Source: Candidatus Latescibacterota bacterium
Lineage (GTDB): Bacteria; Latescibacterota; UBA2968; UBA8231
DNA: 64,000 bases
Assembly (NCBI GenBank): GCA_965215195.1
Contig: CBDCDC010000001.1
Coordinates: 864,001 to 928,000 of the forward strand
Direction of reading: 5' to 3'
Shown here: piece by piece, positions 55,778-57,503 of the stretch
Layout of the letters: each line of letters begins with the position of its first letter
Numbering within the stretch: the first letter of the stretch is position 1
Notes under the pieces: generated by a model
The model's input: the letters and a program-made list of their open reading frames with translations, nothing else
The model's database searches: none
Told to the model about the DNA's origin: nothing
Translations under genes and position numbers: made by a program

Positions 55778-56362
55778 ATGGCGGGGGCCCCGGCAGTCGG
55801 CATGATCGAGGTGGAGGGCGTAGCCGCCGCCATTGTGGGTGCGGATGCGGCTTGCAAGGCCGCAGACGTGGAGCTTGCGGGTTGGGCGTCAATCGGCGGT
55901 TATACCACGGCCTTTTTCACCGGGTCAATCAGCGATGTGGCCGCTGCGCTGCAAAGCGGCCAAGAAGCGGCCCGCAGGGTGATAGAACACGTGGTGGCCG
56001 TGCCCCTACACCAACCCGCTCCCGCCTGCCTCCATTTCGTCGATTTTCCGGCCCGTGCCCACAGCGACTTGCCCGCCGGTGCCTTGGGGTTGGTCGAGAC
56101 GCGCGGCTACGGGGATCACATTTACACCAACGATCAGATGGTCAAGACGGCTGCCGTTGAGGTAATCAACGTGCTGACGGTCCACGACCGCGTGGTGTGT
56201 TCGCTGGTCTTGGGGGACGTAGGGGCCGTCACCGAAGCCATAGCTGTCGCGCAAAAGTTGCTCGCAGGCTGCGAGCGCTTGCTGGGCACGGCACTGATCC
56301 CCCAGCCGCGGCCAGAGATTTTGGCCGCATACGCCGTGCCGCTGGGAGGTGGCGGTGTCTAG
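55778..56362 (+). CDS. BMC shell protein with two divergent tandem domains
   Basis: AVGMIEVEG..DAACKAA; ALGLVETRG..DQMVKTA..GDVGAV..IPQP. Confidence 0.85.
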   Translation: MAGAPAVGMIEVEGVAAAIVGADAACKAADVELAGWASIGGYTTAFFTGSISDVAAALQSGQEAARRVIEHVVAVPLHQPAPACLHFVDFPARAHSDLPAGALGLVETRGYGDHIYTNDQMVKTAAVEVINVLTVHDRVVCSLVLGDVGAVTEAIAVAQKLLAGCERLLGTALIPQPRPEILAAYAVPLGGGGV

Positions 56363-57503
56363 CGGGGCGCTCGGCATGCTGGAGACGCGCGGCATGGCGT
56401 CGCTGATGGCTTCCACCGACGCCATGCTCAAGGCCGCCCAAGTGCAACTCTGCGGTCGGCACGGCATTGGCGCGGGTTGGCTCACCGCAGTAATTGCCGG
56501 CCAAGTGGCTGATGTAGAGGCGGCCATTGGCGTTGGCGAGGTTGAGGCGAACCGCACCGGCGAACTGATTGGCGCACGAGTAGTGCCGCGGCCGGACGCA
56601 CGCGCCATGGACGCCATGCCCCACGCAACCGGGCTCGGTGCCGAACAGGTACAGCCGCGGGCGATAGGCTTGTTGGAAACGCAGGGGCTGACGCCGCTAG
56701 TGGCCGGTGCGGATGCCATGCTCAAGGCCGCCCAAGTGGAGCTAGGGGGTTGGGCTTTCATCGGCGGTGCCCTGTGCCACGCGCCGATCTTTGGCGATGT
56801 GGCGGCCGTGCAGACAGCGCTAGAAGCCGGCCGGCGAGCAGCCGAGCGGATCGGCACCGTGTATGCGACCCTCGTTTTGCCCCAGCCCAGCGAGGGGCTA
56901 GGCCCTCTGTTGCCGCCTGCGCCGGCGGCCGCGCCGCGCTCCACGGGTGCCTTGGGCCTCGTAGAGACCATTGGCTACGCCGCGGTCGTGGGCAGTGCCG
57001 ACGCCATGCTCAAGGCCGCGGATGTCCAAATTGAGCGCTTGAGCATCGGCAGCGGCGGGCGGATTGCCGCGCTGGGCATCGGCCAACTCGACGACGTGCA
57101 GGCCGCGGTGCGCGCCGGTGCCGAGGCCGCCACGGCCTTGGGCCAGCTCGACGCCTCGGCCGTAGTCTCGCGGCCCGATCCCATGCTAGTCGCCCGCTTT
57201 GCCACCGCGGCCGAGGGCCTTGGGCCGGGTGCGCGGCAGGCCATAGGGCTGATTGAGACGCGCAGCACCGTGGCCTTGGTGCGGGCTGTCGATCGGATGC
57301 TCAAGGCCGCGGCCGTCGAATACGAAGGGGCCTATAAGGTGGGGTACTACTTGACGGCCGCTGTCGTGCGCGGCGATGTCGGTGCCGTGCAGGTCGCCAT
57401 AGAGGCGGGTCGGCAGGAGGCTGTCGCACACGGGGAACTGGTCTCGGCCTACGCCATTCCCCAGCTCTACGGCGGGCTCGAAGGCCGCCTGCCGCACGTT
57501 TAG
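56349..57503 (+). CDS. BMC shell protein with four tandem domains
   Basis: Four A(L/I)G(M/L)xET starts and four DxMLKAA motifs in 384 aa; the start may be GTG 56355. Confidence 0.88.
   Translation: MAVSSGALGMLETRGMASLMASTDAMLKAAQVQLCGRHGIGAGWLTAVIAGQVADVEAAIGVGEVEANRTGELIGARVVPRPDARAMDAMPHATGLGAEQVQPRAIGLLETQGLTPLVAGADAMLKAAQVELGGWAFIGGALCHAPIFGDVAAVQTALEAGRRAAERIGTVYATLVLPQPSEGLGPLLPPAPAAAPRSTGALGLVETIGYAAVVGSADAMLKAADVQIERLSIGSGGRIAALGIGQLDDVQAAVRAGAEAATALGQLDASAVVSRPDPMLVARFATAAEGLGPGARQAIGLIETRSTVALVRAVDRMLKAAAVEYEGAYKVGYYLTAAVVRGDVGAVQVAIEAGRQEAVAHGELVSAYAIPQLYGGLEGRLPHV

Follow-up and report, generated by a model that had tools for sequence, protein, structure and literature searches.

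Shells of bacterial microcompartments (BMCs) are described as assemblies of symmetric tiles, namely hexamers, trimers of two-domain chains, and pentamers, and in the main text of a 2021 catalogue all shell proteins fall into six types, none of which exceeds two domains per chain (PMC8217296). The DNA analyzed here, a stretch of 64,000 nucleotides (nt) from a Candidatus Latescibacterota bacterium (contig CBDCDC010000001.1, positions 864,001 to 928,000; hereafter the window), holds a gene that departs from this scheme. At 56349-57503 on the plus strand, an open reading frame (ORF) of 384 amino acids (aa) encodes four BMC domains, and it overlaps the end of a second plus-strand shell gene, at 55778-56362 (ATG start, 194 aa), that encodes two. 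The symmetry of a tile forces it to carry three or six identical pore loops and binding sites. How, then, would a chain of four different domains be built into a shell, and does the two-domain protein encoded beside it take part? The two genes probably encode the parts of one obligate 4+2 pseudohexamer, a tile free of symmetry; synteny, position-specific conservation, the gene inventories of several genomes, and a structure model in which the ring closes all speak for this reading. An earlier note, written from the letters of the window, had listed a single asymmetric 4+2 tile among several alternatives; the adjacency of the two genes in 69 of 69 loci and the closed ring of the model now favor it over the others.

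Pfam finds four PF00936 stretches in the 384-aa protein (E 5.5e-75; 247.8 bits against a gathering score of 24.5) and two in the 194-aa protein (109.8 bits), which places both in the BMC superfamily. The four complete, non-identical domains read by the earlier note, and the four profile matches it had predicted, are thus borne out. The domains, here called Q1 to Q4, lie on the plus strand at 56364-56615 (approximately residues 6-89, delimited by DSSP elements), 56661-56879 (approximately residues 105-177; Pfam and DSSP), 56949-57200 (approximately residues 201-284; DSSP), and 57240-57482 (approximately residues 298-378; DSSP), and they share 32-43% pairwise identity. All three linkers between them measure 20-22 residues by sequence count, the same count giving 22 for an ordinary 186-aa tandem BMC protein encoded upstream; the linker between Q2 and Q3, of approximately 20 residues, has a high content of proline and alanine. 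The lysine of the D-x-x-x-K edge motif, which the earlier note had seen in all four domains, is invariant at K28, K126, K222, and K319 in alignments of 17 and 19 homologues, and likewise at K27 and K123 among aligned homologues of the two-domain protein. Four Pfam-significant domains in one ORF, kept in 69 other loci, are far beyond chance.

Two start codons come into question for the four-domain ORF, GTG 56349 and GTG 56355, and the overlap with the stop of the upstream gene, which had been noticed before, measures 14 nt with the former and 8 nt with the latter. The second start, which gives 382 aa, fits because most database relatives have exactly this length. A Shine-Dalgarno-like hexamer, GGGAGG, lies at 56344-56349 on the plus strand, inside the 3′ end of the two-domain gene and 5 nt before GTG 56355, and suggests that translation of the two genes may be coupled.

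AlphaFold2, run on a 19-row alignment, folds all four domains (mean predicted local distance difference test score (pLDDT) 88.5; predicted template modelling score (pTM) 0.88), which answers the concern that fewer than four might fold. Every modelled domain has the element order strand-helix-strand-strand-helix-strand, which we take to be the canonical, non-permuted BMC order; judged by this presumed order, the model contains no circular permutation and the protein belongs to none of the permuted classes (BMC-T-sp, BMC-T-dp, and BMC-H-p). We use these classes as they are defined in the main text of PMC8217296. The 384-aa chain also falls outside BMC-T-s, which has exactly two non-permuted domains per chain, a number that its 194-aa partner does have, and neither chain is a BMC-H protein with its single PF00936 domain. 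The best NCBIfam model for the four-domain protein is that of CcmO (NF053792), with 264.5 bits summed over three stretches against a cut-off of 270; the partner reaches 70 bits.

The four-domain gene is intact in a large number of relatives. Of 8000 candidates scored in a word-indexed search, 1302 proved to be relatives; the best 120 of these are 53-94% identical, and 117 of the 120 have lengths of 369-404 aa. When one genome per species was scanned, 78 loci were obtained, 69 of which hold the complete, uninterrupted four-domain ORF, many of them on contigs of 3-7 Mb. Three further loci are truncated by contig ends (L066, L072, and L073) and five are unrelated BMC genes of 31-36% identity (L074-L078). 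In the remaining one, L071 (3258-4431), the four domains are split 3+1 into ORFs of 302 and 86 aa with a frame change between them, which reflects either an error of sequencing or a copy in decay. Of 24 same-genus genomes, 23 also carry the full ORF free of internal stops, the sole genome lacking it being 58% complete, as does one genome of another family (G040); in family f2 the matches were all of two-domain size (9 of 12 genomes), and in family f3 there were none (0 of 3). One contig of 2273 nt, from a run that belongs to another study, extends over 55403-57675, and thus both genes, with 29 substitutions and a single indel that lies past the stop codon. Because this independent contig spans both genes, an assembly-made fusion is excluded; the continuity of the ORF, for which the earlier note had wanted confirmation, is secured by it and by the 69 intact loci. 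In 19 sequences with identities down to 49%, 85 residues are invariant. The family is common in metagenome-assembled genomes labelled Latescibacterota and Gemmatimonadota, and the label sponge metagenome is attached to three runs in which small shares of the stretch occur (0.05-0.16). Two RNA libraries yielded contigs, 90-95% alike, that match parts of both genes. These contigs stem from relatives and may reflect DNA carry-over, and we do not count them as evidence of expression; gaps in their coverage carry no meaning either.

Adjacency and co-occurrence of the two genes in related genomes, which had been proposed as a test, turned out to be strict. All 69 loci whose four-domain ORF is complete, with identities down to 49%, have a two-domain ORF immediately before it on the same strand, at spacings that range from a 14-nt overlap to a gap of a few nt, with 103 nt in L058. 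A division into two ordinary tandem genes (2+2), which the earlier note had named as an outcome that would speak against its reading, was seen neither in these loci nor among the matches of a search of protein representatives, the only split being the 3+1 arrangement of L071. Apparent 2+2 splits among the short top matches of the representative search (P0124, P0127, P0128, and P0131) are fragments or carry out-of-frame tails. Across 18 matched loci, identity falls from 90 to 50% for the partner and from 91 to 49% for the four-domain chain, although such in-step divergence proves nothing alone because it is expected for genes of one genome.

The inventories of four satellite-type genomes (G041-G044), which belong to a more distant branch (approximately 54-56% identity), bear directly on the partner. 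In these genomes, the pair lies either on a different contig from the main locus or at a distance of 2.2-3.1 Mb from it. The main locus holds a triplet of vertex genes and two BMC-H genes, and in all four genomes the BMC-P genes are located elsewhere than the pair. The BMC domains of each whole genome number eight, made up of two single-domain genes and the six domains of the pair, which is therefore the only multi-domain shell gene set present. The 186-aa tandem protein is missing from all four and cannot be the general partner of the four-domain chain.

Each of the six domains of the pair has an identity of its own, as is seen in a maximum-likelihood tree that was built in IQ-TREE (LG+G4, quick search) from 93 columns and comprises 178 domains of 20 loci. 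Q1, Q2, Q3, Q4, and the two domains of the partner, D1 and D2, each form one side of a branch with Shimodaira-Hasegawa-like approximate likelihood ratio test (SH-aLRT) values of 95-100. In the tree, D1 falls within the group of first domains of the ordinary tandem protein and D2 beside its second domains, with branch lengths of 1.22 and 0.97 changes per column, both very long, and the two-domain partner is therefore a strongly derived tandem protein of BMC-T-s descent. An origin of the whole set by triplication of a tandem gene was considered and dropped, because only the D1 and D2 assignments are supported.

The positions also differ where a tile would have its pore. Consensus sequences at 90% or more over 70 sets (the 69 loci and the window) retain the edge lysine in all six positions, and each position has a pore-loop consensus of its own: GW.SIG-G.TT in D1, nVLTVH.RVVC in D2, GRHGiGSGW in Q1, GWafiGGAL.Ha in Q2, RL.IgSGGR in Q3, and YEG.YKVGY.LTA in Q4. 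The corresponding loops of the four-domain chain in the window read GRHGIGAGW, GWAFIGGAL, RLSIGSGGR, and YEGAYKVGYYLTA. The six different pore loops foreseen by the earlier note are thus a conserved property of the family, and because the loops are position-specific, the conserved basic and aromatic residues sit differently in each sixth of the presumed pore.

The association of the two chains was modelled with each chain entered as an alignment, in three runs and alongside three controls with unrelated proteins. The best run reached an interaction prediction score from aligned errors (ipSAE) of 0.83 (0.82-0.83 over the three runs) as against 0.01 for the best control, thereby passing a score mark that is reached by 58 of 80 solved complexes and by two of 110 mismatched pairs. 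At least 89% of contacts are shared between the runs, and the pLDDT of the partner is at least 88. In the model, Q1 (residues 8-92) contacts D2 (109-143) and Q4 (305-336) contacts D1 (7-87), so that the ring closes in the order D1-D2-Q1-Q2-Q3-Q4, which is the gene order, with the two-domain chain filling the gap between Q4 and Q1. The 4+2 modelling called for by the earlier note has thus produced a closed ring. The modelled interface is better conserved than the remainder of each protein, with means of 0.74 versus 0.65 in the four-domain chain, where 18 of 46 interface residues are invariant as compared with 67 of 338 others (Fisher p 0.004), and of 0.74 versus 0.63 in the partner. Among the equivalent free faces, that of Q4 shows the highest conservation (0.83).

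Comparison with solved structures gives a further view of the arrangement within the four-domain chain. A Foldseek search of the PDB ranks a synthetic tandem BMC-H fusion, 6NER, first (template modelling (TM) score 0.86-0.91 by target length), and superposition of 6NER on two consecutive model domains gives root-mean-square deviations (rmsd) of 2.1-3.0 Å over approximately 180 columns. If the two domains of 6NER occupy neighboring positions of a hexagonal tile, as we presume, then consecutive domains of the model are hexamer neighbors too. Natural tandem trimers such as PduT and HO-5812 align over a similar length and superpose poorly (TM 0.40-0.46 by target length, rmsd 14-17 Å), and the placing or the direction of successive domains in the model may differ from theirs. 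The longest of the 52 PDB sequence matches has at most 213 residues, and consequently there is no solved chain with more than two BMC domains among them.

From these results, we propose the following model. The two-domain and four-domain genes would be expressed together, and translational coupling is likely because their stop and start codons overlap. One copy of each chain would form one hexagonal six-domain pseudohexamer, with the ring order D1-D2-Q1-Q2-Q3-Q4 and, because all six domains differ, without rotational symmetry. The tile should sit in the shell facets beside BMC-H, because its six edges keep the lysine and proline motifs that join tiles. Its central pore would be lined by six different loops with conserved basic and aromatic residues, and each of its faces would be unique. 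Most likely, such a tile would serve as a dedicated gate through which a substrate or product passes of the enzyme whose gene adjoins the pair, a member of the dihydrodipicolinate synthase (DHDPS) family described below, as a single-copy docking site for that enzyme, or as both. Of this model, the domain content, the synteny, and the conservation, both general and position-specific, are observed, and the closure of the ring is predicted; co-translation, incorporation into the shell, and the pore or docking function go beyond these, and we put them forward as inferences.

Several observations weigh against an obligate 4+2 tile. BMC hexamers are abundant among solved structures, and the success of the complex prediction may for that reason show likeness to known hexamers and not binding. 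As the controls were unrelated proteins, the model cannot rank the two-domain chain over a pair of BMC-H subunits or the 186-aa tandem protein. With a conservation of 0.66, the free face of Q1 falls a little short of its counterparts in Q2-Q4 (0.75-0.78). Support is low at the deep branches of the domain tree, which place Q1-Q4 weakly and do not show a simple alternating origin. A Rosetta-stone fusion with all six domains was not found when longer proteins were searched with the two-domain protein, although a blank of this kind is weak evidence; of the four matches, three are ordinary four-domain proteins and the sole candidate, P0121, is a frameshifted chimera. Finally, the even spacing of domains over the gene boundary is open to two readings. 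Domain starts are a median of 95.3 codons apart across the boundary and 95-98 codons apart within chains, and the tail of the first gene together with the head of the second amounts to 23 residues by sequence count, as compared with 20-24 in true linkers, all of which is consistent with a split linker. However, tight operon packing would give the same spacing, and ordinary shell-gene neighbors are similarly spaced, with 93 codons (by arithmetic from motif positions) separating BMC-H from the second of the two domains in the 186-aa protein. We therefore do not regard the spacing as decisive.

The main rival to the 4+2 tile is that the four-domain chain is completed by two BMC-H subunits or, where present, by the 186-aa tandem protein, and that the two-domain protein forms a homotrimeric tile of its own. 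A BMC-H pair is a possible substitute partner, with a BMC-H gene in every genome looked at and with BMC-H paralogues, CcmK3 and CcmK4, that reportedly assemble into heterohexamers, and the complex test, whose controls were proteins unrelated to BMC paralogues, does not speak against it. We nevertheless consider this explanation unlikely. Against it stands the strict adjacency of the two genes, whose stop and start overlap or abut, and the very long branches of D1 and D2 are what would be expected of domains freed from fitting their own copies. For the 186-aa protein, the absence from every satellite-type genome counts against it in addition.

Likewise unlikely, in our view, is that four-domain chains are shared between tiles, for example with three chains making up two tiles, or with each chain placing two of its domains in one tile and two in a neighboring or stacked one, such that the shell would be cross-linked covalently. 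The equal linkers within the chain and in the ordinary tandem protein argue for one neighbor-to-neighbor geometry throughout, which is also what the confident monomer model indicates, its consecutive domains matching 6NER, whose domains we take to be hexamer neighbors. Four does not divide six, it is true, and proline and alanine are frequent in the linker between Q2 and Q3. Sharing of this kind would, however, leave the two-domain partner gene without a role, and stacking is at odds with the domains being unpermuted, if we assume the canonical order correctly. Stacked double trimers do exist in the permuted BMC-T-dp class, according to the main text of PMC8217296.

That the four-domain ORF is non-working, whether an artefact of assembly or gene calling or a decaying fusion, is hardly credible and already contradicted: many database entries are indeed fragments or carry frameshifted tails (P0122, P0124, P0127, and P0131) and L071 is split, but against this stand 69 independent intact loci, many on multi-megabase contigs, the lack of stops in the genomes of 24 relatives (23 of the same genus and G040), the independent contig with its only indel after the stop codon, and the 85 residues that stay invariant.

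How does a 4+2 tile relate to what has been described? The earlier note knew of no characterized four-domain shell protein, and the main texts of the catalogues agree with it, their six types stopping at two domains. Full-text searches of the openly accessible literature gave no description of a natural shell protein in which three, four, or six BMC domains are joined, and chains of more than two domains do not appear in the main text of two BMC catalogues, although the family may stand in their supplements under another label. Matching passages of the preprint of the 2021 catalogue and of a 2014 taxonomy contain nothing over two domains, and the phrases that did match in the literature meant four separate shell proteins or three tandem dimers. 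The main text of PMC8217296 contains neither pfam00701 nor the words "dihydrodipicolinate" and "Latescibacter".

The proposed 4+2 assembly would work like the tile of a tandem-domain trimer, yet its four-domain chain departs from the two domains by which that class is defined, and the assembly would depart from the homotrimer. With BMC-T-s proteins such as PduT and CcmO, it has in common unpermuted PF00936 domains, linkers of approximately 20 residues, the predicted neighboring tile positions, and the retained edge lysine. In contrast to their three identical two-domain chains, it has one four-domain chain and one separate two-domain chain, and as a consequence of this make-up it would have no threefold symmetry and six different pore loops; furthermore, the CcmO score lies under the cut-off and the natural structures superpose poorly (TM 0.40-0.46). 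The best match by both sequence (E 2.2e-36) and structure is 6NER, the synthetic Haliangium ochraceum fusion, in which canonical BMC-H-like domains are likewise joined head to tail. That protein is engineered, with two identical domains and a symmetric trimer, whereas the present system is natural, with six diverged domains in two chains. The CcmK3/CcmK4 heterohexamers of β-carboxysomes are said to break sixfold symmetry and alter the pore by mixing BMC domains, but they do so with single-domain subunits in no fixed order, whereas here four positions are covalently ordered and the 4+2 composition is probably fixed.

Chains with more than two domains may not be confined to this family. The exhaustive representative search, which at 50% clustering gave two full-length representatives of the four-domain family, also returned many proteins of approximately 283-330 residues (P0132, P0136-P0142, P0144, P0156, P0178, and P0202). 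Three PF00936 stretches were found by Pfam in all seven proteins tested, of approximately 283-297 aa, and a custom domain hidden Markov model found three domains, 96-111 residues apart, in 12 of 12, none of which is nearest to any of the six positions described here. Some of these proteins are encoded on contigs of up to 1.4 Mb. A metagenome scan with one of them, P0139, gave only three weak relatives of two-domain size, and we found no paper describing three-domain BMC proteins. They resemble the present system in having more than two PF00936 domains per chain, at the same spacing of approximately 98-100 residues, and in a number that can complete six, as two times three; they differ in having three domains, orthologous to none of the six positions. 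Two such chains could make up a six-domain tile.

The gene of this enzyme, which belongs to the DHDPS/N-acetylneuraminate-lyase family, is located at 57518-58687 on the plus strand and encodes 389 aa, with PF00701 at residues 75-361 and an N-terminal extension of approximately 75 aa. In 63 of the 69 loci it immediately follows the four-domain gene, and in 66 it falls within the fetched flank, where 67 loci hold enough downstream sequence for its presence to be judged. The enzyme scores under every NCBIfam equivalog cut-off, with N-acetylneuraminate lyase as the nearest (165 versus 281 bits). In the distant locus L035 (7998-10934), the two-domain, four-domain, and extended DHDPS genes stand together without other shell or core genes within 8 kb, and the N-terminal extension is kept. 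The same three genes make up the satellite cassette of the four genomes described above, where the pair adjoins a DHDPS-family gene with such an extension. The first approximately 50 residues of the enzyme (57518-57670) are shared, with 36% identity (BLASTP, E 3e-7), with the start (55325-55474) of a 149-aa protein encoded at 55325-55774 on the plus strand, immediately before the two-domain gene. That protein is cysteine-rich, having seven cysteines with partly C-x2-C spacing, and has no family match in Pfam or NCBIfam. A match to it is adjacent upstream in 51 of 69 loci, some of which may reflect the shared N-terminal part alone; an ORF at L035:7569-7979 was rejected as its counterpart, the alignment being unconvincing and the ORF probably spurious. 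The shared N-terminal domain gave no Pfam match up to E 10 other than at chance level and no NCBIfam match, and its Atlas feature matches (0.81-0.82) are at chance level as well. It may be an encapsulation or docking domain.

We infer from this arrangement that the tile and the extended DHDPS-family enzyme work together, with the tile either acting as a gate or docking the enzyme via the shared N-terminal domain. As a tentative and, on balance, doubtful extension, the pair may constitute the first natural symmetry-free tile, serving as the private gate or docking site of the extended DHDPS enzyme, which accompanies it even in satellite cassettes megabases away from the main locus, within a wider and so far unrecognized class of shell proteins that have more than two domains and sum to six, the three-domain proteins among them. 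If the 4+2 tile is real, the symmetry constraint is gone, its pore can fit an asymmetric metabolite, and it offers exactly one docking site of defined orientation, which would explain how a shell gives one enzyme an entrance of its own. It would also offer engineers a model from nature for building synthetic shells with individually placed cargoes or functional pores, an aim so far approached through engineered tandem fusions such as the 6NER protein, and an expression construct would need only two genes.

The tile genes are part of a compact plus-strand operon, delineated from the ORF list, Pfam, and NCBIfam. Upstream of them are the metabolosome core genes for an acylating aldehyde dehydrogenase (AldDh; 52042-53454; PF00171; NF011927 with 649.6 bits against a cut-off of 403), a BMC-P/EutN-type vertex protein (53454-53768; PF03319), and a PduL phosphotransacylase (53772-54443; PF06130), followed by those for the ordinary 186-aa tandem protein, which is BMC-T-s-like (54481-55041; two PF00936 domains, 174.9 bits), and an 87-aa BMC-H protein (55057-55320; one PF00936 domain, 91.4 bits). 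All of these lie no more than 4.4 kb upstream. With an acylating AldDh, a phosphotransacylase, BMC-P, and BMC-H all encoded in the window, the operon corresponds to a metabolosome, that is, an aldehyde-oxidizing BMC, and AldDh, EutN, and PduL are present in the fetched flank of 52 of the 69 loci. Downstream of the extended DHDPS-family gene come those of a flavoprotein, an oxidoreductase of the DAO family that uses flavin adenine dinucleotide (58688-59764; PF01266), and of a second, divergent DHDPS-family protein (59786-60739; PF00701, 43.1 bits), both also on the plus strand.

Immediately upstream of the operon, at 50789-51939, are an L-rhamnose mutarotase-like gene and a minus-strand gene of the fumarylacetoacetate-hydrolase family, for which 2,4-didehydro-3-deoxy-L-rhamnonate hydrolase is the nearest model, with a score under its cut-off. 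The former occurs in the flank of 18 of the 69 loci and the latter in that of 33, and together they hint at deoxy-sugar-acid metabolism. At 36907-49820 lie the genes of a 1054-aa protein with PD40 repeats and dockerin, He_PIG, and FGE-sulfatase domains, and then a 2809-aa ORF. On the other side of the operon, an HNH endonuclease gene at 60736-61152 is followed by a minus-strand stretch of low guanine-cytosine content (61909-63839; 0.475 versus approximately 0.65 nearby), which encodes two TIR_2 proteins, an 8xMP membrane protein, and a ThsB-like TIR protein; these genes look like a defence island adjoining the microcompartment operon.

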